The notes beneath the pieces are model-generated. The model searched no databases and was not told where the DNA came from. It saw nothing but the letters and a program-made list of their open reading frames with translations. Below are positions 6,757-38,799 of a DNA stretch of 38,799 nt, piece by piece. Made by a program: the position numbers and the translations under genes. The stretch comes from Clostridia bacterium (GTDB taxonomy: Bacteria; CBDUZB01; JAGLHV01): assembly GCA_030637025.1 (NCBI GenBank), contig DAOVVV010000025.1:1-38799 (forward strand), written 5' to 3'. Each line of letters starts with the position of its first letter. Within the stretch, counting starts at the first letter, position 1.

Positions 6757-7743
6757 TTAATTTTTTAACACCTGTAATGCCTTTTCCAATGTACTTTGAT
6801 TTTCTATGTTTACTACTTTTACATCCTTATTAATCCGGCGCAAGAGACCTGATAAAACTCTCCCCGGACCTACTTCAATAAAAATATTTACACCATAATC
6901 AATCATTTTTAAAATACTTTTTTCCCATAATACAGGATTATCAATCTGTTTTATTAAAGCTTTCTTTATGTCTTGCTCTTTAAAACTTAATTCTGCATTA
7001 TAATTCATTATAACAGGAATCCTTGCATTTTTAAACTCTACCTTTTCCACTTCCCGGGAAAATTTTTCTTCGGCAGAAAACATTAATTTAGAATGAAAAG
7101 GACCACTCACATTTAAAAGAATTGCTCTTTTAGCCCCCGCCACGCGGGCAAGGTTTGTCACTCTCTCACAAGACTCATTATGTCCGGCAACAACAATTTG
7201 CTGAGGAGAATTAAAATTTACCGGCTCTACAACTAAATTCATTTCCTTTTCCACCTTGCTGCAAATTTCTTCTACTATTTCTTTTTTTAACCCAATAATT
7301 GCTGCCATTTTTCCGGGATTTTCCAAAGAAGCCTGTTTAATTAATTTTCCTCTTTGATTTATAAGAGCTAATATAGCAGAAAAGTCTAAAACATTTGCCG
7401 CAAATAAAGCAGAATATTCTCCTAAACTATGCCCTGCCACTGCTACTATTTTATCACTCAAATCCGGCAAACAATTTTGTATAAATACTTTTAAAAAAGC
7501 AATACTGGTAACAAAAATTGCAGGTTGAGTAATTTCGGTTTTTTGCAAATCAGCTTCATTTCCTTCGAAAATATATTTTTCTAAATCAAAATCCAGAAGA
7601 TCATTCGCTTGCTGAAAAACTTCTCTGGCTACATCATAATTATCAAAGAACTCTTTTCCCATACCAACATATTGAGACCCCTGTCCGGGAAAAAGTAAAC
7701 CGATTTTAATCCCCTGATCAATAGATTTTAATTCTTCTTGCAT
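6757..7743 (-). CDS. fabD: Malonyl-CoA:ACP transacylase
   Basis: FPGQGSQ, TQPAI, GHSLGEY, VSGPFHS, EVGPG. Confidence 0.96.
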   Translation of the reverse strand: MQEELKSIDQGIKIGLLFPGQGSQYVGMGKEFFDNYDVAREVFQQANDLLDFDLEKYIFEGNEADLQKTEITQPAIFVTSIAFLKVFIQNCLPDLSDKIVAVAGHSLGEYSALFAANVLDFSAILALINQRGKLIKQASLENPGKMAAIIGLKKEIVEEICSKVEKEMNLVVEPVNFNSPQQIVVAGHNESCERVTNLARVAGAKRAILLNVSGPFHSKLMFSAEEKFSREVEKVEFKNARIPVIMNYNAELSFKEQDIKKALIKQIDNPVLWEKSILKMIDYGVNIFIEVGPGRVLSGLLRRINKDVKVVNIENQSTLEKALQVLKN

Positions 7744-11629: not shown

Positions 11630-11723
11630 TGTCACAAATAATCACATACTCACTTCGCTGACGTCATACATTGTCATAAACGCAAACAGTCAAATACTAA
11701 ATCCGCTTTATCCGCCTTAGGCG
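11630..11723. repeat. Repeat C, copy 1 (short-tandem-repeat scaffold)
   Basis: tgtcacaaata.tcaca, a 22-bp identity gtcatacattgtcataaacgca (11663-11684 = 16802-16823) and ccgc.t.atccgcct.aggcg are all shared, in the same order, with 16743-16889. Confidence 0.85.
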
Positions 11724-16059: not shown

Positions 16060-16102
16060 AAAAATAAAGGTAAAATGTGTTTTTAACGATATAGCAAATT
16101 TT
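16060..16102. repeat. Repeat A, partial copy (left arm only)
   Basis: aaaataaaggtaaaatgtgtttttaacgatatagcaaatttt matches the first ~42 nt of 25851-26018. Confidence 0.8.
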
Positions 16103-16199
16103 CCAATCATATATCTGTTGTCTTTATTCCGTTATCTATGGGCTATCACCTGTCTTTTGTCTTTATGTCGATTAAATCTTAACAATAGAAAAAAATTTA

Positions 16200-16703: not shown

Positions 16704-16742
16704 ATCTTTCTCCTTTTATAAGAAACTACTTCTTTACACAAT

Positions 16743-16889
16743 TGTCACAAATAGTCACAAATCCCCCTAACCCCTTTTCCAAAGGGAGGAAATTCGTCCG
16801 TGTCATACATTGTCATAAACGCAGACAGACAAATCCGAAATACTAATATCTAAATTCTAAACCCGCCTCATCCGCCTAAGGCGGAGAGG
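16743..16889. repeat. Repeat C, copy 2, expanded by internal modules
   Basis: Collinear with 11630-11723, plus atccccctaaccccttttccaaaggga (~16761-16787), a heptamer run aaatccg-aaatact-aatatct-aaattct, and the hairpin tccgcc-taa-ggcgga (16871-16885). Confidence 0.85.
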
Positions 16890-16907
16890 ACAAATAAATT
16901 CAAAACA

Positions 16908-17078
16908 AAAAAATGAAGGGGAAATGTGTTTCGAACGACTTAGCAAATTTTAGCGAAAATAAGCGTTAAAAAAATAAGCTTGTCTGAGCAAAGCGAGTTG
17001 CTTATTTTAGCTTGTTTTTGCGTGCCCGTAGGGTAAAATTATGCGTCTAGAGAGAAACATGTTTTTCCTTTATTTTTT
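16908..17078 (+). repeat. Repeat A, copy 1: ~170-nt multi-stem palindromic element (MITE-like or structured ncRNA)
   Basis: Highly similar to 25851-26018; ~24-bp terminal stem, three nested stems, apical ttgtctgagcaaagcgagtt, side hairpin ccc-gta-ggg. Confidence 0.9.
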
Positions 17079-17167
17079 AACCTTGTGCCTCTATGCCTTT
17101 GTGCCTTTTCTTTTTAGCTTGTGCCTGTCTTTTATCTGTCATCTGACGGACTATCTTTTGCTATTAG

Positions 17168-17866
17168 CTACTTTTTCAATCCCAATTCCGCTGTCGGCCT
17201 TCGTATATACAACGGAAAAATTTTATTATATTTTTTACCCTTTCCTCTTTGCAATTCTTCCTTACCTAACCAAGCAACATTAGATGCAGTGGGAAACACA
17301 TTTCTAAACGAAGCAAAAACAGCTTTTTTGCCTAACATGTTTTTAATTATTTCCCGATGCAGTGAAACCCCATCCCCTACAAATAAAATCTTTCCCTGAT
17401 GCCTTTGGTTAAATTCATATAAATTCTTTAATAATTCCTCTATTTTTATTAACTGATACTCCATTATTTTTTCTGTAACTTTTGTTCTATACAGTGCCGT
17501 ATAAACTTCTTTCCTTAAAGCATCGATAATAGGACACACAAAAAAATCACAAGGAAAAACACTCAAAGCCAGAATATCCAAACTGGAAACACCAACGATA
17601 GGAATTTTCAGAGCTTGTGCTAATCCTCTAACGGCAGAAATTCCTACTCGAATGCCGGTAAAAGAACCCGGACCTATGGATACACCAATGCCTTCTAAAT
17701 CTTTAATTTTAATCCCTAAATCTGTTAAAATTTTATTTAATCCCGAAAATAATTTCTCCGAATGTCTGCCTTTTATGTTTAAAATATATTCTGCGGCTAA
17801 ATTTTCGTTCTCTAAAACAGCAACACTACAAATTTTAGATGTAGTTTCTATCCCCAAAACTTTCAC
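17168..17866 (-). CDS. tsaB: tRNA t6A biosynthesis protein TsaB
   Basis: VLGIETT, HSEKL, GPGSFTGIRVG, IDALRKEVY, PLYIR; GTG start. Confidence 0.95.
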   Translation of the reverse strand: MKVLGIETTSKICSVAVLENENLAAEYILNIKGRHSEKLFSGLNKILTDLGIKIKDLEGIGVSIGPGSFTGIRVGISAVRGLAQALKIPIVGVSSLDILALSVFPCDFFVCPIIDALRKEVYTALYRTKVTEKIMEYQLIKIEELLKNLYEFNQRHQGKILFVGDGVSLHREIIKNMLGKKAVFASFRNVFPTASNVAWLGKEELQRGKGKKYNKIFPLYIRRPTAELGLKK

Positions 17867-17892
17867 AAAATATTATCCCTTTTATTTATAGA

Positions 17893-19347
17893 TTAAGAAG
17901 GACTGCTATCACCCATACAAATTCTATTTTTCCCTTCTCTTTTTGCCTGATACAAAAATTCATCAGCTTTTTTAATTAATTCATCCGTAGATAATTTATG
18001 CTGGAAACTAGATATTCCACCGCTTATACTTATTTCTTTTGAAGAGGATTCCTGCAGAAAAGTATCTCTTACCGCTTTTCTTATTTTTTCTGCTACTTCT
18101 TTTGCTTCCACAACCTTTGTCTCCGGTAAAATAATTATAAATTCTTCCCCTCCGTAACGACTTATTACATCTACTTTGCGACTATTTTTATTTAATATTC
18201 GAGCCACTTTTTTAAGGACAATATCCCCTTTAAGATGCCCATAGGCATCATTATATTGTTTAAAATTATCGAGATCGAACATAATCAAACATAAAAACCG
18301 TTTATATCTTTCTGCCCTATCAACTTCTACTTTTAGGCGTTCTTCAAAATAGCGCCGGTTAAAAAGTCCGGTCAAAGAATCCGTTATGGATAAAACTTTT
18401 ACTTCTTTATACAATCTTGCATTTTCAATAGATACAACAGCCTGGTTGACAATTATAGAAAGCAACCTTAAATCATCCATGGTAAAAACAGTATTTTCTT
18501 GATCGTTTTTATCAGTAATATTAATTACCCCTATTGTTTCATTTTCTTTTCTTAAGGGCATACTCAAAAAAGATTTACTTTTATAGGGCTCAGACCCTTT
18601 CTCTTCTTTAATTCTACGGGCATCGGTTTGTTTATCAACATCTAATACCAATAAAGGCTCCCCTGTTTTTGCTACCCAACCCACAATCCTTTCTCCTAAT
18701 TTTACTTGAGTATTTTTAATAATTCTATCCTTTAACCCTCTAGAAGCAACAATTTTTAAAACTTCCCCGGATTTATCCAATAACATTAAAGAACCTCTTT
18801 GCGCTTCTATAATGTCCGTAGCCTTCATTATAATAAAATCAACCAGTTCTTCTAAATTCAGAATAGAGCTCATCTTCTCCCCTATTTCTAAAATAGTTTC
18901 TAATTTGTTTTTTTCTTTTTGCAAATATTGTAATAATTCTTTATTTCTTAACGTTAATCTCCGCCGTTCTAATCCTTTCTTAATAATTAATTTTACCCGT
19001 TCCGGATCAAAAGGTTTAAGAATATAATCATAAACTTCCTCTTCCAAAGCTTTAATCGCTGTTTCTATATTAGCATAGGCAGTCATTACAATAACACAAA
19101 CATCCTGATCATTTTTCTTGGCTATTTTTAATATTTCCAGGCCACTCATATCCGGTAATTTTAAATCTGTAAGAATTAAATCAGGTAAAATTTCTTTTAT
19201 TTTAATAATTGCCTGAGCAGCATTCCCGGCAAGAGTAACCTTGTATTCTTCTTTCTCCAATAGATCCCTGATTGTCTCACCTATAAAAGCTTCATCATCT
19301 ACTATTAGTATATTAACTTTTCCCTCTGTTTTATTTTGAGCTGTCAT
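17893..19347 (-). CDS. Response-regulator diguanylate cyclase (REC-GAF-GGDEF)
   Basis: REC: ILIVDDE, LTDLKLPDMSG, MTA, KPF. GAF: GSLML, GWVAKTGEPLLV, SFLSMPL, IGVINI. GGDEF: TDSLTGLFNRR, DLDNFKQYND..GH..GD, RKVD I-site, RYGGEEF. Confidence 0.95.
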   Translation of the reverse strand: MTAQNKTEGKVNILIVDDEAFIGETIRDLLEKEEYKVTLAGNAAQAIIKIKEILPDLILTDLKLPDMSGLEILKIAKKNDQDVCVIVMTAYANIETAIKALEEEVYDYILKPFDPERVKLIIKKGLERRRLTLRNKELLQYLQKEKNKLETILEIGEKMSSILNLEELVDFIIMKATDIIEAQRGSLMLLDKSGEVLKIVASRGLKDRIIKNTQVKLGERIVGWVAKTGEPLLVLDVDKQTDARRIKEEKGSEPYKSKSFLSMPLRKENETIGVINITDKNDQENTVFTMDDLRLLSIIVNQAVVSIENARLYKEVKVLSITDSLTGLFNRRYFEERLKVEVDRAERYKRFLCLIMFDLDNFKQYNDAYGHLKGDIVLKKVARILNKNSRKVDVISRYGGEEFIIILPETKVVEAKEVAEKIRKAVRDTFLQESSSKEISISGGISSFQHKLSTDELIKKADEFLYQAKREGKNRICMGDSSPS

Positions 19348-19384
19348 TTCAAAACTTTCCTTTTAAAATTTTATACCATCGTTA

Positions 19385-19897
19385 CTAAAGAGATTCAAAC
19401 AACAAATCCAACTTTTTAAATTCACTACACCGTTTTTTGAAACTTTCTCCGCAAACCAATAATTTTATTTTCCTTAAATTCCCCCTGCCCGAAAAATATA
19501 TCTCTATTCTTTCCTCCGGCCAAACATCTACAATTTTATCCGCCCATTCAATAATGGTAATGCCCTCACTGTAAAAATACTCTTTATAACCTAATTCCTC
19601 AATTTCCAGGATTGAATCTATTCTGTACAAATCAAAATGATAAACAGGATATTTGCCTTTATATTCATTAATCAGTCTAAATGTAGGACTATTAACATAC
19701 TCATCCACTTTTAAACCTTTTGCGACTCCCTGGGTAAAAGTAGTTTTTCCCGCTCCCAATTCTCCCACTAAACAAATAACATCGCCCCCTTTCAAAATGC
19801 CCCCCAAATATTTTCCTATTTTTTTAGTTTGAGAAGCTTTGCGGGTCTGCAAATAAAATTCTTTTTTAAAATTCCGGATTATCCGTAAAGTGCTCAT
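19385..19897 (-). CDS. tsaE: tRNA t6A biosynthesis ATPase TsaE
   Basis: GELGAGKTT, VNSPTF, YHFDLYR, IIEWA; start uncertain (overlaps the thiL 3' end by 32 nt). Confidence 0.95.
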   Translation of the reverse strand: MSTLRIIRNFKKEFYLQTRKASQTKKIGKYLGGILKGGDVICLVGELGAGKTTFTQGVAKGLKVDEYVNSPTFRLINEYKGKYPVYHFDLYRIDSILEIEELGYKEYFYSEGITIIEWADKIVDVWPEERIEIYFSGRGNLRKIKLLVCGESFKKRCSEFKKLDLLFESL

Positions 19898-20900
19898 ATC
19901 CCTTTGCTTTTAATTTCAATACCTTCCCTTTTTTATCGAGAAACTTTATTCCTTCTTTTTTACTTACAATTTCTCCTATAACCGTTACCCCTGAAATCTG
20001 TTTCTTTATTTTTTTTGTTTTTTCAGGTGAAGCAGTAAAAACCAATTCATAGTCTTCTCCCCCGAATAAAGCAAACTCTAACGGATTTTTTTTAAAAGCG
20101 CTACTTGTTTTTTTTAATCCACCGGACAGAGGAATAGAATCTGTATAAATTTTTGCTCCTACTTTACTCTGCCTGCTAATAAATTTTATTGATAAATCCA
20201 AACCATCACTACAATCAATCATTGCTGTAGCACATTTTGTCCGGGCAATAATCCTTGCTTCTTTTATTCTCGGCTCAGGAAGCAAAAAGCGGTTAATAAG
20301 ATATTTCTCATAACGATTAAAAAATTTCAGATGTTTGGGATTTTTTAACAACCTTAAACCAGCTCCTGCATCTCCTATTGTTCCGGTTAGTAAAATTTTA
20401 TCGCCCAACTTAGCGCCTGATCTGGTCACTAATTCTTTTTTTTCTATTTCGCCCAATACAGTTATTGAGATTACAAAAAAACAAGGTGAAGATACTGTAT
20501 CTCCACCGATAATTTTTACTCTATATTTCCCGGCTAAACTTTCTATTCCTCTATATAATTCCTCTATTTCCTTTACAGCAGTATCTTGAGGAAAACCTAT
20601 CGAGACCAGAGCATATAAAGGAATCCCTCCCATAGCCGCAATATCACTGAGATTACAAGCTAATGCTTTCCAGCCAATTTGTCTCAAGGAAGCTGTTTTT
20701 TTACTAAAATGTACTCCCTCTATTAACATATCCGTAGTGGCCAAAAAAGCTTTTCTTGAATCTTTGGCCACTACGGCTGCATCATCACCAACACCTAAAA
20801 TTAACCTTCTTTTATTATAATTCCGGTGTTTTTTACCATTCTCAATTACTTTTTTTATCTTTTCAATTAAATTAAATTCACCCAAAGAAGAAACTTTCAT
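19866..20900 (-). CDS. thiL: Thiamine-monophosphate kinase
   Basis: LGEFNLI, GVGDDAA, DMLIEGVHF, NLSDIAAMGG, IGGDT, IDCSDGL, GGEDYEL, GYEHF. Confidence 0.96.
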   Translation of the reverse strand: MKVSSLGEFNLIEKIKKVIENGKKHRNYNKRRLILGVGDDAAVVAKDSRKAFLATTDMLIEGVHFSKKTASLRQIGWKALACNLSDIAAMGGIPLYALVSIGFPQDTAVKEIEELYRGIESLAGKYRVKIIGGDTVSSPCFFVISITVLGEIEKKELVTRSGAKLGDKILLTGTIGDAGAGLRLLKNPKHLKFFNRYEKYLINRFLLPEPRIKEARIIARTKCATAMIDCSDGLDLSIKFISRQSKVGAKIYTDSIPLSGGLKKTSSAFKKNPLEFALFGGEDYELVFTASPEKTKKIKKQISGVTVIGEIVSKKEGIKFLDKKGKVLKLKAKGYEHFTDNPEF

Positions 20901-20938
20901 TAATTTATACCAAATTTCTTATTTATTTCTTCTTTTCC

Positions 20939-21169
20939 TTATTCTGAGTTAGTATCAGTTTTCTCTTCGCTTTTACTCTCTTCTTCTTCTTTTTTTGCCG
21001 CTCTCTCATCCTTTACACTACTTATTCCCGCAGCAACAGCAACTAAACCGCCTAATACAGCCATAAGAGGCAAAGAACCCTTTAGTACTATCCACAAATC
21101 CCCCGACCATACTATCACACCTAAAAGACCTACTACCAGAAAAACTAATCCTCCAATAATTGACAACAT
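20939..21169 (-). CDS. Small hypothetical membrane protein (2 TM helices, charged tail)
   Basis: 76-aa ORF with AGGAGGG RBS, two Gly-rich hydrophobic segments and a Glu/Lys-rich tail; promoter-like sequence upstream. Confidence 0.8.
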   Translation of the reverse strand: MLSIIGGLVFLVVGLLGVIVWSGDLWIVLKGSLPLMAVLGGLVAVAAGISSVKDERAAKKEEEESKSEEKTDTNSE

Positions 21170-21227
21170 TTTTTTCCCTCCTTTCTCTTCTTTAATTTTT
21201 TAAAAGATATAACTTATTTGTTTTTTT

Positions 21228-21256
21228 ATAATACCATTTAAAATAAAAAAAATCAA
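21228..21256 (-). promoter_or_regulatory. Sigma70-type promoter (extended -10) for the small protein-thiL-tsaE-dgc-tsaB unit
   Basis: Minus strand TTGATT (21256-21251), 17-bp spacer ending in TGG, TATTAT (21233-21228). Confidence 0.6.
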
Positions 21257-21280
21257 TATTTTTCCTGAAATTTTTAACTT

Positions 21281-21400
21281 TTAATTCAATGAGACTTAGA
21301 ATTTTTTCAGCTACGCTGACAAAAACTCTGTAGTCGAATTGATCCTGAGTGACCGTAGAAAGTCGAAGTGGCCCGCAGCAAGCTGCGGGATAGTTGATTC
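21281..21400. repeat. Repeat B, copy 1 (non-autonomous palindromic element, IS200/IS605-end-like)
   Basis: Matches the reverse complement of 34698-34805 (ttaattcaatgaga.ttaga...aaaaactctgtagtcgaattgatcctgagt.accgtag...tagttgattc); internal hairpin and GC-rich hairpin cccgcagc-aa-gctgcggg. Confidence 0.88.
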
Positions 21401-21421
21401 AATGTCCCTGTTTACTTTCTT

Positions 21422-21874
21422 TTAATTTCCTTCGGCTATGGCTTTTACTATATCAGCTTTTCCTACAATACCTACTATTCTATCTTGATCCATTACCGGA
21501 AAAAGATGCACCTGTTTTTCAGTCATTAAAGTAGCAATCTCACAAACGGATGTATCTTCTTTAATAGTAATTACTTCCTTGGTCATTATTTCTAACACGT
21601 TTTGAGCCATAATTTTTTTTAATTCGTCATCAAAATGTTTAAAATTTTCCAGATATATCAATCCCCCTAAGATATTTACTACCGTAGGAAAATGTATCTT
21701 TTTATCCTGGAAAATTAAATCATCTTCTGTTACTATCCCGATTAATTTGCCCTGTTTATTTATTACCGGAGCACCACTTATTTTTTGGGCCAATAAAAAA
21801 GAAGCCACATCGGAAATACTCATTTCCGGAGAAACCGTAAAAACTTTTTTAGTCATTATCTCTTTAGCTTGCAT
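21422..21874 (-). CDS. CBS domain-pair protein
   Basis: AKEIMTK, ISGAPV...LIGIVTEDDL, EIMTKEVITI, FPV...IVGIVGKADIV. Confidence 0.92.
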   Translation of the reverse strand: MQAKEIMTKKVFTVSPEMSISDVASFLLAQKISGAPVINKQGKLIGIVTEDDLIFQDKKIHFPTVVNILGGLIYLENFKHFDDELKKIMAQNVLEIMTKEVITIKEDTSVCEIATLMTEKQVHLFPVMDQDRIVGIVGKADIVKAIAEGN

Positions 21875-21893
21875 AAATTTTCTCCTTTATACT

Positions 21894-23480
21894 TTAATTT
21901 TTCAAACTTATCGCTTGCGGTATTTTACTAAGTAAATCACTTGCTATTAAACTCACTTCTCCCATTTCTCCGGCGGCAAAATCACCGGCTAACCCGTGCA
22001 AATACACTCCCACTCTTGCTGCCGCGGCTAAAAGTTCCTGCTCAGAAGAAAATTTTATTTGATTCGCTTTCCCCGTCATCTGTGCAACCAAACCGGCAAT
22101 CATTCCGGTAAGCACATCTCCCATCCCTGCCGAAGCCATTCCCGGATTACCGGTAGAATTCAAATAAAGCATATCTCCATCGGTAATAACTGTTTGATAA
22201 CCTTTAAGTAAACAAATCAAATTATATTTCCCGGCAAATTCTTGGGCTAATTTAATCCTTTCTTTTTGAATCTGCAAAGTATCTTTAGCCATTAATCTGG
22301 CTAATTCACCCGGATGAGGGGTAATGATTAATTTTGCCTTTGTTTTTTTCAGTATTTCCTTTCTTTCCGCTAATAAATTCAAAGCGTCCGCATCCAAAAC
22401 ACAGGGTATTTGAACATTTAAAAGTATCTTTTCTATCAATTCACCCATTTGACTATCTGTAGACAAACCAGGCCCCATTACTAATACAGAAATCTTTCGT
22501 TTATCTATAAAACTTATAATTTTTTTAAAACTTTTTAAAGGTAAAATCTTTTGGTTCATTGCCGGCAAAGGTAACGTCATTACTTCCGTTAACTTAACTT
22601 CCATTATGTGATTAAGGTTTTCGGCAATTGCCAGAGTAACCAATCCCGCCCCTATTCTAATTGCTCCCCGACAGGTTAACGCAGCTGCTCCGGTCATCCC
22701 AATAGAACCGGCCAAAACCAAAACATGCCCAAAATCATTTTTACATACATCTTTTTTTTCTCTTTGCGGGAGAAAATATTCTATTTCCCGCCGGTTCAGT
22801 AATTTTTCCCTAACTTTTACCTTTTCTACTATTGAAGAAGGAATACCTATATCTGCCACCCTTACTTCTCCGATAAAATTTCTTCCCGGAAATAAAAACA
22901 AACCCCTTTTAGGTAAGCCAAAAGTTATTGTTAAATGCGCACATATACAAAAATTAGTTACTTTACCTGTAGTGCCATTCACACCTGAAGGAATATCACA
23001 GGCAACAATAAATTTCTTTGAATTATTTACCTGCCTAAATAATTCTATCATAAAATCGGGTAAACCGGATTTTAAACCCGTACCAAATACAGCATCAATA
23101 ATCAAATCTACTTTCTCAATCTCATCTTTAAAACGATCTTTTATTACTCCATTATATTCTATAAAATCTATTTCCAGCTTTCTTGCTTTATCAAAATTGG
23201 TCTTTGCATTTTCGGATAACTCATCTATCCCAAAGAGTACCGCTACTTTTACCCTGCTCCCTTCTTCAAATAATTTACGGGCTATAACTAATCCGTCTCC
23301 TCCGTTATTCCCTTTACCGGTTAAAATTAAAACTTTTTTATTCTGTAGATTTAGAAATTTACTTTTTAATATTTTTACAAAATTTTCTCCGGCTCTTTCC
23401 ATCAAAATCAACCCCGAAGTTCCCTGAACAACACAATCTTCATCGATTTTTTTCATCTGCTCACTGGAAACAATTTTCAT
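21894..23480 (-). CDS. nnr: Bifunctional NAD(P)H-hydrate epimerase/dehydratase (YjeF)
   Basis: LMERAG, GKGNNGGDG, DAVFGTG, DIPSG, GHVLVLAGS..MTGAA, GPGL, LDADAL, TPHPGE, GMGDVL. Confidence 0.95.
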   Translation of the reverse strand: MKIVSSEQMKKIDEDCVVQGTSGLILMERAGENFVKILKSKFLNLQNKKVLILTGKGNNGGDGLVIARKLFEEGSRVKVAVLFGIDELSENAKTNFDKARKLEIDFIEYNGVIKDRFKDEIEKVDLIIDAVFGTGLKSGLPDFMIELFRQVNNSKKFIVACDIPSGVNGTTGKVTNFCICAHLTITFGLPKRGLFLFPGRNFIGEVRVADIGIPSSIVEKVKVREKLLNRREIEYFLPQREKKDVCKNDFGHVLVLAGSIGMTGAAALTCRGAIRIGAGLVTLAIAENLNHIMEVKLTEVMTLPLPAMNQKILPLKSFKKIISFIDKRKISVLVMGPGLSTDSQMGELIEKILLNVQIPCVLDADALNLLAERKEILKKTKAKLIITPHPGELARLMAKDTLQIQKERIKLAQEFAGKYNLICLLKGYQTVITDGDMLYLNSTGNPGMASAGMGDVLTGMIAGLVAQMTGKANQIKFSSEQELLAAAARVGVYLHGLAGDFAAGEMGEVSLIASDLLSKIPQAISLKN

Positions 23481-23568
23481 CTTTTACCTGAAACCTTTCT
23501 TTTTCTTCTGTCTTTCTAACTAACTTCCTGCTGTTTTTTATCAGATTAAAAAACACTTCTATTTTAGT

Positions 23569-23931
23569 TTATTTATCTACGACCCATAAAGCTTGAGCTA
23601 CTGCACAATTATGTGTATGAGAGAGCGAAATCAATATACGCCCTTCTTTCAAAGGAGATATTTCTTCACCAAAAACTACCTGCGGTTTTCCGCTTTTTTC
23701 GTTTTTTATCCCAATATTTTTAAAATTTATTTTCAAATTTTCCAATGCTTTTAAAACGGCCTCCTTAGCGGCAAAGCGTACTGCAAAATGTTCCCACTTG
23801 TTTTTCTTTCCCTGACAATACGCAATTTCTTCCGGAGTAAAAACTTTAGATATAAACCGTCCGTTTTTATTTATTATTTTTTTAATCCGTTCAACTTCCA
23901 CAACATCTATACCACAACCTTTTATTTCCAT
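23569..23931 (-). CDS. acpS: Holo-ACP synthase
   Basis: GCGIDVVEVERI, FTPEE, RFAAKEA, GKP, ISLSH; start moved to 23931 (GGAG RBS). Confidence 0.95.
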   Translation of the reverse strand: MEIKGCGIDVVEVERIKKIINKNGRFISKVFTPEEIAYCQGKKNKWEHFAVRFAAKEAVLKALENLKINFKNIGIKNEKSGKPQVVFGEEISPLKEGRILISLSHTHNCAVAQALWVVDK

Positions 23932-23973
23932 AATTATCTCCGGCAACACTCTATATTACAAGTTATATTAAAT

Positions 23974-25806
23974 TTACTCCACCGTAACACTTTTAGCTAA
24001 ATTTCTAGGCTGATCCACATCACACCCCCTCTTAAGAGCAATATAGTAAGCTAAAAACTGAAGGGGAATCACATTAAGAAAGGGAGTTAAAATCTCCAGG
24101 GTTTTTGGTAAATAAAAAACATCTTCCACTTCTTTGGCTATCTTGCGATCTCCCTTGGTAGCTAAAACAATTACTATTCCATCACGCGCTTTTACTTCTT
24201 TAATATTACTTAAAATTTTATCATAAACCTTTCCCTGATTAGCAATAACCAGTATCGGCATATTTTCATCAATAAGAGCAATAGGACCGTGCTTCATTTC
24301 TCCGGCGGCATATCCCTCAGCATGAATATAGGCAATTTCCTTTAATTTTAACGCCCCTTCCAAAGCTATGGGATAATTTACATTTCTGCCCAAATATAAA
24401 AAATCGCTTTTTCTAAAAAATCTATGCGCATAATCCCGAATAATATCCTGCATTTCTATTGTTTTTTCGATTTTTACCGGCAATTCAAGAAGAGCAGAGA
24501 TAATTTGTTTAATCCGAAGAATAGAAAGGCATTTTCTAAATTTAGCGAAATAAAGACCGAGTAAATACAAAACAACAAGTTGTCCCATAAATGCCTTAGT
24601 AGAAGCCACCCCTACTTCCAATCCACAGCGGGTATAAACGACATAATCACATTCTTGTGCTATTGATGAATCCATTACATTACATATAGCCAAAGTCTTT
24701 ACCTTCTTCTTTTTTGCTTCCCTTAAAGCCGCCAAAGTATCCGCAGTTTCTCCTGATTGGGTAACAACTACTACTAAATCACCTTTTCTTAACAGAGGAT
24801 TCCTATATCTAAACTCTGAAGCAAGATCTACTTCGCACGGTATTTTAGCAAAATCTTCCAGTACATATTTCCCAATTAAGCCGGAATGATAAGATGTTCC
24901 ACAAGCAACAATAAAAATCCTGCTTATTTCATCAATCTCTTCTTTTTTCCAACCAATTTCTTCCTCTAAAAATACACCCCCTTTTTCCAAACAAATCCGT
25001 CCCCGCAAAGTATCCCGAACTACATCCGCCTGCTCACAAATTTCTTTGAGCATAAAATGTTTATATCCGCCCTTTTCAGCCATCATTGGATCCCACTCAA
25101 TTGTTCGGCTATTTTTGTGAATTTCTCTATCACAAGAATTAAAAAATTTAACCCCTTTAAAATCCAAAATTGCTGTTTCTCCGTCTTCCAGAGAAATAAC
25201 CTTTTTAGTATAAGCTAAAATTGCAGAAACATCCGAAGCAATAAAATTTTCCTTTTCGCTTATTCCCACAATTAAAGGACTACCGTGCCTGGCAGCAACA
25301 ATCTTTCCCGGATATAGGGTGCTAATTACTCCTAAAGCGTAAGAACCCTTCAAATCTTTTACTGCACGCTGTGTCGCTTTTAAGAGGTCCCCCTTAAAAT
25401 ATTTTTCTATTAAATGAGCAATAACTTCTGTATCTGTATCCGAGTTAAATTTATGCCCTTCTTTGACTAATTTTTTCCTTAGGGTTAAATAATTCTCAAT
25501 AATACCATTATGCACAACAACAAAATTTCCTTTACAATCGGTATGGGGGTGAGCATTTTCCCGGGTTGGTTTTCCATGCGTAGCCCACCGGGTATGTCCT
25601 AATCCTATTTTTCCCCGAATAAGAAATTTTTGTAATTCTTGTTCCAGATTGATTAATTTACCTGCACAACGGTGTAAGATTAATTTATTCTTGTTTAATA
25701 CTGTAATTCCTGCTGAATCATACCCGCGGTATTCCAGCTTTCTTAACCCATTTATTAAAACAGGAACTACTTCTTTATTTCCCACATAACCAATAATACC
25801 ACACAC
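23974..25806 (-). CDS. glmS: Glutamine--fructose-6-phosphate aminotransferase
   Basis: N-terminal CGIIG, LEYRGYDSAG, GHTRWATHG, HNGIIEN, QSGETADT, ALKLKE, DQPRNLAKSVTVE; GTG start. Confidence 0.98.
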   Translation of the reverse strand: MCGIIGYVGNKEVVPVLINGLRKLEYRGYDSAGITVLNKNKLILHRCAGKLINLEQELQKFLIRGKIGLGHTRWATHGKPTRENAHPHTDCKGNFVVVHNGIIENYLTLRKKLVKEGHKFNSDTDTEVIAHLIEKYFKGDLLKATQRAVKDLKGSYALGVISTLYPGKIVAARHGSPLIVGISEKENFIASDVSAILAYTKKVISLEDGETAILDFKGVKFFNSCDREIHKNSRTIEWDPMMAEKGGYKHFMLKEICEQADVVRDTLRGRICLEKGGVFLEEEIGWKKEEIDEISRIFIVACGTSYHSGLIGKYVLEDFAKIPCEVDLASEFRYRNPLLRKGDLVVVVTQSGETADTLAALREAKKKKVKTLAICNVMDSSIAQECDYVVYTRCGLEVGVASTKAFMGQLVVLYLLGLYFAKFRKCLSILRIKQIISALLELPVKIEKTIEMQDIIRDYAHRFFRKSDFLYLGRNVNYPIALEGALKLKEIAYIHAEGYAAGEMKHGPIALIDENMPILVIANQGKVYDKILSNIKEVKARDGIVIVLATKGDRKIAKEVEDVFYLPKTLEILTPFLNVIPLQFLAYYIALKRGCDVDQPRNLAKSVTVE

Positions 25807-25850
25807 AATAGCTACTCCTTAAAACAAATATATTCTAAATACTAAATGTA

Positions 25851-26018
25851 AAAATAAAGGCAAAATGTGTTTTGAACGACTTAGCGAATTTTAACAAAAA
25901 TAGGCGTTAAAAAAATGAGCTTGTCTGAGCAAAGCGAGTTGCTCATTTTTAGCCTGTTTTTGTGTGCCCGCAGGGTAAAATTACGCGTTTAGAGAAAAAC
26001 ATATTTTGCCTTTATTTT
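25851..26018 (+). repeat. Repeat A, copy 2
   Basis: Terminal inverted repeat aaaataaaggcaaaatgtgtttt / aaaacatattttgcctttatttt (22 of 23 Watson-Crick, one G-T); nested stems as in copy 1. Confidence 0.9.
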
Positions 26019-34697: not shown

Positions 34698-34805
34698 GAA
34701 TCAACTACCCCTCACCCCTTCAAATCCCTACGGTTACTCAGGATCAATTCGACTACAGAGTTTTTTCAGCTATGCTGATAAAAACTCTAAATCTCATTGA
34801 ATTAA
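34698..34805. repeat. Repeat B, copy 2 (inverted relative to copy 1; GC-rich hairpin degraded)
   Basis: Reverse complement aligns with 21281-21400; hairpin agagttttttcagc-tat-gctga(t)aaaaactct. Confidence 0.88.
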
Positions 34806-35024
34806 ATGCCGTAATTCCCGACATGCACGATATGGTTTTAGATAAAAATACCAGAATTTCCCGTTTTAAAAATTCACTTTAAATCAAACACGGGTTATTC
34901 TGGTTATTTACCGCTTCCTCTGCCCAAAAATTTTAAGTAAATGTTCTTTTAAACCCTTATTTTATTCGCTGTCTGAGACAAATCAGACAACTATTTTCTT
35001 CTCTCAGCCAGTATATTTTATTTA

Positions 35025-38000: not shown

Positions 38001-38799
38001 CAATTTAGAACTATTAACCGCTTCATCTCGAAACATATCCAAAAATTTAGCCTCTTGAGAAAAAGATTTATGTATTTTTTTAATTGCAACAAATTTCTCC
38101 AGGTTTACAGCCCACGCTTTATAAACAGAAGCAAATCCCCCTCTTCCTATTTTTTTAATTATATGATACCTATTCCCACTTGCTTTCAAAAATTCTTTTG
38201 CTAGTTGCTCCTGGTTTTCCTCTTCCTTAAAAATTATACTTTTTTGACTTGGTTTCTCCCATTTTTTTATTGCTTTCCTTATTATTTCTTTTAATTGATC
38301 ATCAAAAATAGGCTTAACCAAATATGTATCAATGTACTCTCCCATTTTTTTCTTCTTGAATTCTTCTGTATCAAATTCATCAAATATAATAATATAACAA
38401 GCATTCTTATCAACTTTTCTAAGTTTCTTAATAGTATCTATGCCTTTTCCCCCGGATAATTGTGATTCAACTAATATTACATTGAAAACAATTTTACCAA
38501 CACTTTCAATAGCTTTTTCCTGAGTAGAAGCACAGGTAACAGAATACCCTTCATTTTTTAAAATGTCAGACAAAAAAGTTGTTGATTGATTATCACTATC
38601 AACTATCAATATATTTTCGTTTCGATAAGTAGCTGGTTTAGAAACCTCTTTCTTATGCATTTTCTCTTCCTTTTTACGCATTTCTTCTTCTTTCTTCTCT
38701 GCGGCTTTTCTTTCTTCCTCTTCCTTCTTACGCATTTCCTCTTCTTTCTTCTCTGCGGCTTTTCTTTCTTCCTCTTCCTTCTTACGCATTTCCTCTTCT
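35025..38799 (-). CDS. Large membrane-anchored Hanks-type Ser/Thr kinase (E/K/R repeats, pseudo-receiver, kinase, TM, PEGA repeats, TPR); 5'-truncated
   Basis: IGRGGFASV, VAIK, HRDVSPGN, DFG, YMSPEQ, DIYSIG; TM IIKITLSLLIGAIGFAAL; PEGA-like SVPSGASV, SFPEGADVYIDG, SRPQGAAIYVD; TPR-like helices at the C-terminus; frame stays open to the window end. Confidence 0.92.
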   Translation of the reverse strand, partial: EEEMRKKEEEERKAAEKKEEEMRKKEEEERKAAEKKEEEMRKKEEKMHKKEVSKPATYRNENILIVDSDNQSTTFLSDILKNEGYSVTCASTQEKAIESVGKIVFNVILVESQLSGGKGIDTIKKLRKVDKNACYIIIFDEFDTEEFKKKKMGEYIDTYLVKPIFDDQLKEIIRKAIKKWEKPSQKSIIFKEEENQEQLAKEFLKASGNRYHIIKKIGRGGFASVYKAWAVNLEKFVAIKKIHKSFSQEAKFLDMFRDEAVNSSKLEHENIVRVIDFLKTKDNIYYIIMEYVKGCNLHDILKRCQEKNKKISLDLAAHIISEVLKGLKYAHSKVDEVTGEPLSIVHRDVSPGNIMICFDGRVKITDFGIAKATTRYIAKAKKGALRGKVAYMSPEQAMGDVELDYRSDIYSIGIVLYRLLTGRWPFEGNTDYNVWEKVKKGKIDLDVLGDLTVPDGLIKVVSESLRKDREKRYQHDEDMFVDLQEYLHKQKKYSHMLMQEFKKFIYEILGKEIREEEKSSKKESTLSRRVAIEQEAMVKEDVADRAITDDFSSKQKPFFTLPEIEEVKEAQEEIKHEKVEEKEIKVEKEIRKEKEKEEIEFHEEAREKTVFDFVLDTANRYKKMIIKITLSLLIGAIGFAALDTFQHWTPLGDKIYNFFWPPTLSIDSVPSGASVSLVNDNGEDVIRKNAFSPAYVSKILPGNYTLILKKEGYKDIERRITVFGIERGKQDIRLEGMHASGQEKKQKVNLITIPFEIGLEINSFPEGADVYIDGNKLPGKTPLIQNMKVGEHTIKLVKEGFNVIGNVEKTTMRGQCNLNLIKDASDQEGVDRRYWDISSSVLDDGLISYILKGTFWKEISLDSRPQGAAIYVDDSKSSWGTTPQKISIKIGEYKIKLEKPNFQEWVGVIKVDADTEIDINPILKKWVYFYSYGEKKSKKDINAAVYIEGTKINGKKTPFKYPLVIKEYEVTFKKHPKYESRSFKVNINDRKVVKATLKQKPISLKIVVKNFTNEYNINNAYILINNKWVGRTDKNGVWKSFMKAGEYKIKIGKQKEYETAEVSKRLNWGQKEITLFVSLAPISKNKEKLFEKGQAYYKKGKWLKAQKTLNEVLKVDPENKTALKYLARVNKEIAKEKGEKIKRKTKIIFAEAKENFKDKKWLRAYDKYSQVLNLGPDDKSMINDSRRYIKYINKKMDNIAQGVTPVDRSKDLFYAIAFCYYREGDFKLAVAEWERVLTLDSRDPEVKEFIKKVKKKM
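38672..38799. repeat. 54-bp tandem repeat (18 aa, MRKKEEEERKAAEKKEEE), at least 2.3 copies, runs off the window
   Basis: The cat triplets (minus-strand ATG) recur at 38679, 38733 and 38787, a period of 54, with near-identical units. Confidence 0.92.

Follow-up and report, generated by a model that had tools for sequence, protein, structure and literature searches.

Repeat A: a hairpin repeat with strand-specific constraint in a Clostridia bacterium, and a hairpin tip found across bacterial phyla

What kind of element is the ~170-nt repeat, here named Repeat A, that lies twice in contig DAOVVV010000025.1 of a Clostridia bacterium (assembly GCA_030637025.1), and does its folded form act as RNA or as DNA? 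The window examined here is this one whole contig (38,799 nt) of a 2.36 Mb genome in 77 contigs with 33.5% G+C. The genomes used for comparison were those of three congeners; all other relatives were listed only as 'same domain'. A preliminary description of the window had offered two possibilities, a dispersed structured non-coding RNA or a hairpin miniature inverted-repeat transposable element (MITE) mobilised in trans. A hairpin element copied in trans fits best, given the multi-copy composite form described below and the lack of coding capacity. The reading we prefer, without placing it above an even chance, is that Repeat A, ~161-170 nt long and non-coding, is a non-autonomous hairpin repeat which multiplies at the DNA level, and that its single-stranded tip is recognised by a putative factor.

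The two copies and the left-arm fragment reported previously are all present in the window:

16908..17078, + strand: Repeat A copy 1, the full rod, between a TsaB-like gene and a leuD-like gene, both on the - strand
25851..26018, + strand: Repeat A copy 2, with the tip at 25922-25940; best match to model R1 (203 bits)
16060..16102, + strand: left-arm fragment of Repeat A, followed at 16103-16160 by part of an unrelated module, M

When the whole genome was searched with BLAST, as the preliminary description had suggested, a dispersed family of 43 near-full copies and ~50 fragments or variants was found. Contig ends hold many Repeat A copies, and all three congeners also carry the repeat. The core, running from AATAAAGG to CCTTT, was delimited with an end-finding pattern in 33 of the 43 copies, the other 10 giving no match to the pattern. 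It is 161 nt long in 30 copies and 160, 166 and 174 nt in the remaining three. The copies lack coding capacity, none has a transposase gene beside it, and their left flanks differ from one copy to another.

The fold examined was the four-stem rod with a side mini-hairpin drawn in the preliminary description, written in dot-bracket form and counted as written. Its parts in copy 1 are:

16911..16932, + strand: 5' arm of the outer stem (helix 1), pairing with 17054-17075; 22 pairs, 7 changed on both sides, 94.9% of cells paired
17054..17075, + strand: 3' arm of the outer stem (helix 1), covered by the helix 1 pair count
16943..16951, + strand: 5' side of stem 2, pairing with 17035-17044; 98.7% paired
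16953..16964, + strand: 5' side of stem 3, pairing with 17010-17021; 94.6% paired, 3 pairs changed on both sides
16970..16979, + strand: 5' side of apical stem 4, pairing with 17000-17008; 99% paired
16981..16999, + strand: conserved tip TGTCTGAGCAAAGCGAGTT in the apical loop, nearly invariant within the family
17025..17033, + strand: side mini-hairpin CCC-(G/A)NA-GGG (helix 5); 99.2% paired, third loop base always A

The rod fold is conserved through compensatory change. In the own-genome set, which comprised 42 of the 43 copies with the most divergent one omitted, 96.4% of cells were paired and 16 pairs were changed on both sides. None of 500 shuffles matched this, and slid controls reached 38-57%. 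A four-species set of 54 rows (the own copies minus two divergent ones, plus 13 from the three congeners) was 97.3% paired, with 17 pairs and 107 cells changed on both sides, and again none of 500 shuffles matched it. With 17 double-changed pairs on 54 copies, the rod proposed from the window holds, as does its mini-hairpin, originally written ccc-gYa-ggg. Pair 45:147 in stem 2 is A-U in 31 copies and G-C in 9, while four adjacent covarying pairs in stem 4 appear as AAGC/GCTT, GAGC/GCTC, GGGA/TCCC and GGAA/TT(T/C)C. The apical segment had been called invariant, and it is nearly so, but not strictly: a few copies have TGTTTGAGC and one has GAGTGAAACGAG.

The structural constraint acts on the tip-bearing strand. 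Non-Watson-Crick stem cells in the own genome were G·T in 144 cases and A·C in 23 on the + strand, and in the four-species set the counts on the tip-bearing strand were 202 and 20, respectively. This bears out the asymmetry first seen in the window, with G-T on the + strand and A-C on the mRNA strand. Mutation bias does not yield the excess of G·T: no such bias is seen in the unpaired columns, where 9 positions are G·T-making and 16 are A·C-making in kind. Calculated with RNA parameters, the + strand is the more stable in 41/43 copies (mean -51.4 vs -39.2 kcal/mol), and with DNA parameters it is the more stable in 40/43 (mean -30.5 vs -26.2 kcal/mol). The - strand retains some folding (z-scores of -2.1 and -5.8). 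Covariation, wobble bias and stability therefore agree with the earlier claim of a + strand structure, antisense to the operons. By eye, the right arm on the - strand (e.g. 17010-17070) contains AAAGG, a 6-8 nt spacer, ATG and a short open frame of ~17 codons, which probably arises simply from the sequence of the stem.

Evidence for copying at the DNA level comes from a composite form, found at four unrelated loci in this genome, in which the Repeat A arms are kept and the apical ~50 nt are replaced by an unrelated module of ~113 nt. As the same replacement is unlikely to have recurred, the composite appears to have been copied as a unit, for which the arms suffice. Since the arms are what is copied, spread at the DNA level, as with MITEs or with REPINs, the hairpins formed by doublets of repetitive extragenic palindromic (REP) sequences, is favoured. 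The arm-then-module order of 16060-16160 recurs in the composite forms, and the congener G001 has the left-arm fragment (16060-16102) at the orthologous position as well. The unrelated module M, which ends in CTATGGACTATCGACTGTGGACTATGGACT, is found alone or as the interior of composites (16103-16160; L115:220-330; L112:6470-6580 and 6820-6900).

Other arrangements include tandem Repeat A arrays with a period of ~185 nt, where one array unit has an internal deletion, and congener copies in which a GTAG-REP hairpin is nested. At both sites orthologous to the window copies, G001 carries the composite together with a nested GTAG-REP hairpin. A '192-nt subfamily' (L075:1270-1462 and other loci in G001 and G002) carries, in the 5' half of stem 3, a nested REP hairpin with the GTAG tag, GGGTGGGC-TT-GCCCACCC. 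In G002, one contig begins inside the right arm at site 2. One copy lineage sits within another repeat family that is also found uninterrupted, with a duplication of ~11 nt, though this is a single event. Target-site duplications, for which a search had been proposed, did not exceed the control: flanking direct repeats of at least 7 nt accompany 18% of the copies and 17% of mismatched-flank controls. Most of the apparent 'empty sites' were artefacts of tandem arrays and were discarded.

All copies are intergenic (0/43 inside genes, using crude gene calls), and the folding strand is antisense to 74 of the 75 genes that flank them. Copy 2, for example, lies ~45 nt upstream of the start of a glmS-like gene on the opposite strand. 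The folding strand is the C-rich strand in 89 of 91 pieces, the total being 95 merged pieces less four reverse-strand self-hits of the palindrome. The same is true of 28 of 30 congener loci, two of which overlap each other, and the exceptions are one opposite partial copy and one locus without skew. Gene-strand bias is extreme: all 35 crude window genes are on the - strand, and 0/105 and 1/88 genes are on the + strand in other contigs. The GC skew is ~0.25-0.3, in spacers as in genes, with the G-rich strand being the sense strand of the genes. As 1592 of 1728 genes are on the G-rich strand, polarity with respect to genes and polarity with respect to replication are inseparable here. It is by the customary GC-skew convention, and not from a mapped origin, that the folding strand is assigned to the leading-strand template. 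The polarity of Repeat A fits neither the rule for IS608 nor simple chance.

Across lineages, only the tip is shared, and the arms are lineage-specific and complementary. When the 19-mer tip TGTCTGAGCAAAGCGAGTT was used to query contigs from one genome per species (596 Gb), exact matches were returned in at least 110 stretches from many phyla, complete genomes included; by our arithmetic, ~4 would be expected by chance. No exact match was found in the viral collection. Hosts among the matches listed were Marinobacter, Clostridium, Lachnospiraceae, Megasphaera, Saccharibacteria, Gracilibacteria, Nitrospirales, Bacteroidota and others. The tip consensus is TGTYYGAGC-NNA-GCGAGTT, the centre of which is able to form a GC-NNA-GC mini-hairpin, and such hairpins with three-base loops are unusually stable in DNA. 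A text search of the literature for the tip sequence and its complement returned only unrelated primer papers.

At 103 distinct tip sites, leaving out four loci that carry Repeat A itself, the uninterrupted stem adjoining the tip has a median length of 8 bp, compared with 2 bp in a control with arms taken from different sites. Stems of 6 bp or more are present at 76/103 sites vs 8% in this control, and 80 different 8-nt arms are represented. A selection of 40 cross-phylum rows gave a covariation score of 0.83 vs 0.20, though the inner pairs in this set are paired by construction, as the rows were chosen for at least 6 pairs. Tips were also counted in five genomes, allowing up to 3 mismatches and with the reversed pattern as the control:

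Marinobacter: 23 (reversed control 0)
Nitrospirales: 16 (reversed control 3)
Megasphaera: 4, three of them spaced 230 nt (reversed control 0)
Clostridium: 3 (reversed control 0)
Saccharibacteria: 2 (reversed control 0)

In Megasphaera (G152 C1:1854184-1856340; L247, L260) there are three tandem tip units and a fourth 1.7 kb off, present as G+C-rich hairpins inside a longer repeated unit. A broad sample had the motif in 15/401 genomes, and in 11/397 outside the genus (33 matches vs 5 for the reversed control). The genome studied here was the highest in the sample with 43 motif matches, and all 44 of its strict motif matches are inside Repeat A.

In Marinobacter, the whole hairpin with its tip is multi-copy in 7/7 genomes (2-31 matches each) and lies in ordinary spacers. 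One Marinobacter nirBD operon includes two tip copies in opposite orientations, an arrangement that speaks against any function bound to the mRNA strand. A search of the seven genomes for hairpins lacking the tip gave alignments nearly all of which span it, though short split matches could escape the E-value cut-off. The gene between inverted Marinobacter tip hairpins was considered as a partner gene and rejected, as it is NirD-like and the neighbours elsewhere are host genes. A CGTTAA...TTTAG frame that was seen by eye around the tip holds at only 8/100 sites. In the other phyla, the orientation of the tip relative to crude open reading frame calls, which are unreliable in G+C-rich DNA, followed no rule.

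No mobilising enzyme is linked to Repeat A among the families searched in the four genomes. Genes for Y1 (HUH) enzymes are the only type present in all four, with three matches in this genome. The Y1 gene in contig C6 encodes a 315 aa protein, which has a Y1_Tnp domain and a tail weakly like DnaA-C, and inverted repeats of 28 nt that start GGGGTCAG frame the gene exactly (G000:C6:6387-7401; L086:1408-2422). It is an intact TIRtron, and the inverted repeats fit the GGGGWSAS motif given for TIRtrons in the relevant part of Di Nocera et al. (2013, PMC3733652). Against the NCBIfam model REP_Tyr_transpos, the protein scored 74 bits, which is below the cut-off of 80. The Y1-containing contigs C6 and C26 hold no Repeat A, and no Y1 gene is flanked by Repeat A. 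A 9-mer shared by the inverted repeat of the TIRtron and the outer stem had an E-value of 0.06 in a tiny search and was not found in the G001 TIRtron, and was treated as a chance match. The preliminary description had suggested looking for a co-occurring HUH enzyme or REP-associated tyrosine transposase (RAYT), but the Y1 genes proved to be self-contained TIRtrons with ends unrelated to Repeat A.

Of the other enzymes, TnpB was found in 0/4 genomes. A reverse transcriptase, an IS630-type transposase and a classical IS200-type TnpA were each found in G001 only. DDE_Tnp_1 was found in 3/4 genomes, and the sole match here is a fragment at a contig end. There are four small GIY-YIG genes in this genome, one of them within 2 kb of a Repeat A copy. 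An autonomous parent was not found in this genome, where only host genes lie between arms paired at distances of up to 10 kb; relatives were not searched.

REPINs, as presented in the sections of Bertels and Rainey (2011, PMC3116915) that describe them, are REP doublets that form hairpins and are found with RAYT transposases. Like them, Repeat A is intergenic and non-coding, can form a long imperfect hairpin in single-stranded DNA (ssDNA) or mRNA, has compensatory changes, occurs in tandem clusters and persists in lineages. Unlike the REPINs of that account, it is ~170 nt, includes internal loops and a conserved 19-nt tip, has near-absolute polarity, and has no Y1 gene that it flanks. The REP tag GTAG is present in 4/54 Repeat A copies, only where the mini-hairpin loop reads GTA. 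Repeat A also resembles the bcr1, ERIC, Correia/NEMIS and RUP MITEs, so far as these are covered in the pertinent part of Di Nocera et al. (PMC3733652), in its size (70-300 bp), terminal inverted repeats, lack of coding capacity, location beside genes and composite subfamilies that share ends. It differs from the MITEs described there in having no target-site duplication, no parent insertion sequence with the same ends in this genome, covarying internal stems and a strand-specific constraint.

The NTS/SRM hairpins cut by Ssn GIY-YIG ssDNA nucleases, as outlined in portions of Chenal et al. (2025, PMC11893778), are likewise multi-copy, oriented and found across phyla. They are read as ssDNA, and they share with Repeat A a conserved asymmetric sequence that encloses a small palindrome with a loop of three bases. 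However, the published SRM pattern is present in 0/54 Repeat A copies on either strand, and has 9 matches genome-wide. In sedentary chromosomal integrons, according to the passages of Loot et al. (2017, PMC5371416) on orientation, attC arrays are oriented with the folding strand on the leading-strand template. An attC site is also an imperfect palindrome with one folded strand strongly preferred, and the analogy is for polarity only. Finally, Repeat A is like IS200/IS605 elements and their hairpin-ended derivatives, as treated in sections of Lavatine et al. (2016, PMC5027513), in the absence of a target-site duplication, hairpin recognition on one strand and a strong replication-related orientation bias.

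Several observations weigh against spread of Repeat A as mobile DNA with a tip read on one strand, in addition to the lack of a linked enzyme. Comparison of the four genomes gave no clean case of an insertion that differs between species. In G001 both window sites are filled too, which is as compatible with long-retained copies as with mobility. Identity between species is 86-89% for the copies and 81-82% for the flanking genes, which argues against recent mobility. The two strands differ by 12.3 kcal/mol in energy when RNA parameters are applied and by less, 4.3 kcal/mol, under DNA parameters, and the wobble bias across phyla is weak (G·T 29 vs A·C 19). A ~170-nt rod family with the tip in G012 is without polarity, with 4 sites in the direction of the gene, 4 against it and 1 ambiguous. 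A position-based guess at replichore polarity in G012 failed. The folding strand of Repeat A, the C-rich one, is opposite to the lagging-strand template reported for IS608-type elements in the part of Lavatine et al. (PMC5027513) that deals with strand choice.

Matches to known RNAs were also sought. Rfam 15 gave no matches at gathering score in the window or in 18 cross-phylum tip loci, so the Rfam search proposed earlier did not place Repeat A in a family. The only matches on Repeat A at E<=10 were to two sRNAs, both far below threshold: LLnc147 (20.3 bits, cut-off 127) and SpF43 (19.7 bits, cut-off 70). A likeness of the tip to the Flavo-1 motif (RF01705) had been suggested in the preliminary description. 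The best Flavo-1 scores genome-wide were 19.8 and 17.4 bits, vs a gathering score of 42, and were on contigs C39 and C5, away from Repeat A. Flavo-1 was also missing from the matches on 16850-17130 (E<=10) and on five Bacteroidota tip loci (E<=5), and nothing beyond that suggestion links Repeat A to this motif of Weinberg et al. (2010, PMC2864571). A family link was thus rejected, but the consensus recorded with it, TGTYTGAGC-N3-GCGAGTT, is close to the real and widespread motif. The + strand shows no promoter-like site at the two window copies. On that strand, a hairpin with a T-run that resembles a terminator was called at copy 2 only, where the covarying pairs support the long rod instead. 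In ~8 copies (e.g. G000:C8:38170, C22:26953 and C2:49612), an upstream module made up of TTGACAC, a T-run and TAAAA(A/T) was seen by eye, which is -35/-10-like and points into the + strand.

The strongest of the alternatives, though we consider it unlikely, is that the + strand of Repeat A is transcribed, antisense to the operons, into a family of small structured RNAs in which the tip and internal loops would be binding sites for protein or RNA. Covariation and G·U tolerance on the + strand and the wide stability gap with RNA parameters would be expected of such RNAs, and the terminator-like hairpin and T-run in copy 2 and the -35/-10-like modules of ~8 copies could be parts of transcription units. 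However, neither window copy has a promoter-like site on that strand, left flanks vary among the copies, and the terminator-like pairing is not the covarying one. The composite has multiplied despite having lost the apical part, no Rfam family matches, and in other phyla the tip is found in either orientation relative to genes. A role for the - strand copy in operon mRNA, as a stabiliser, processing site or attenuator in the manner of REP, ERIC and other MITEs, we rate a little lower again. Copies lie between co-directional genes, where read-through would include the - strand copy, this strand still folds, and MITEs are often transcribed and fold in mRNA according to the section of Di Nocera et al. 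(PMC3733652) on their transcription. But the wobble bias is on the wrong strand, and in mRNA the 202 G·U cells would become A·C mismatches. The - strand is also the less stable in 41/43 copies, and conservation of the tip across phyla in both orientations would be left unexplained.

Improbable, in our estimation, is a polar chromosomal element that is selected by the host rather than selfish and is tied to replication, for instance as a structure read on one template strand. The agreement with GC skew of 89/91 pieces here and 28/30 loci in congeners, the occupation of both window sites in G001 and the conservation of copies between species, which is at least that of flanking genes, are all consistent with it. 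Against this, the skew polarity is inseparable from gene polarity, tandem arrays, composites, deletions and nested insertions resemble the dynamics of selfish repeats, and the class has no polarity in G012. Very improbable is the suggestion, raised in the preliminary description, that the covariation is a by-product of palindrome repair by arm-to-arm gene conversion, which would leave no single-stranded structure under selection. The arms of a palindrome are able to correct one another, and copies within a genome are more alike than are copies from different species. Gene conversion alone, however, gives no reason for the ~10-fold tolerance of G·T over A·C on one strand, the mutation bias in unpaired columns being, if anything, opposite, and it does not account for stems wholly rewritten around a constant tip across phyla.

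Several other repeats are present in the window. A 40-nt unit beside copy 1 (within 16720-16900) is 90% identical to 11663-11702, and a small CCGCC-TAAG-GCGG hairpin lies at ~16871-16885. Inverted-repeat arms at 21280-21371 and 34715-34806, which are 13.3 kb apart and complementary over 51 nt (88%) and 27 nt (93%), belong to a separate family in opposite orientations. The segment 9795-10037 consists of ~27 tandem 9-nt units that are T/C-rich on the + strand, and may lie in a - strand gene, though no open reading frame was called. Tandem repeats of 54 nt occupy 38661-38799, reaching the contig end, and a related single unit is at 20960-21013.

Under the reading that we prefer, with Repeat A as a hairpin repeat multiplying as DNA, it would spread in the manner of REPINs and foldback MITEs, with the arms sufficing for copying. 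It would be a local and much expanded member of a widespread class of hairpins that have a common 19-nt tip and lineage-specific arms. The functional form would be single-stranded, and more likely ssDNA than RNA, with the tip as a recognition or cleavage site for a putative trans-acting protein. The near-absolute polarity would then reflect the location of the folding strand, which by the GC-skew convention is the leading-strand template. Copies placed there would fold rarely and hence persist, as is reported for attC sites of sedentary integrons. We advance more tentatively, as an idea that will more probably fail than hold, that the tip TGTYYGAGC-NNA-GCGAGTT is the hallmark of a pan-bacterial system of hairpin repeats yet to be described. 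A putative widespread protein would read or cut the tip on folded ssDNA, comparable to REP with RAYT or NTS with Ssn, while the arms are freely rewritten. Repeat A would be the largest known expansion of this system, and its polarity would come from the survival of only those copies that have the folding strand on the leading-strand template.

REP-like hairpin repeats fill many bacterial genomes, and few have a known partner enzyme. Repeat A brings together features that can be tested: a fold constrained on one strand, the same orientation in ~98% of cases, and a tip that is the same letter for letter from Proteobacteria to Saccharibacteria on different arms. As a constant tip on rewritten arms is the expected look of a site that is read on a folded single-stranded nucleic acid, the tip may serve as bait for the protein, and cultivable Marinobacter strains with at least 20 copies make such an experiment feasible.

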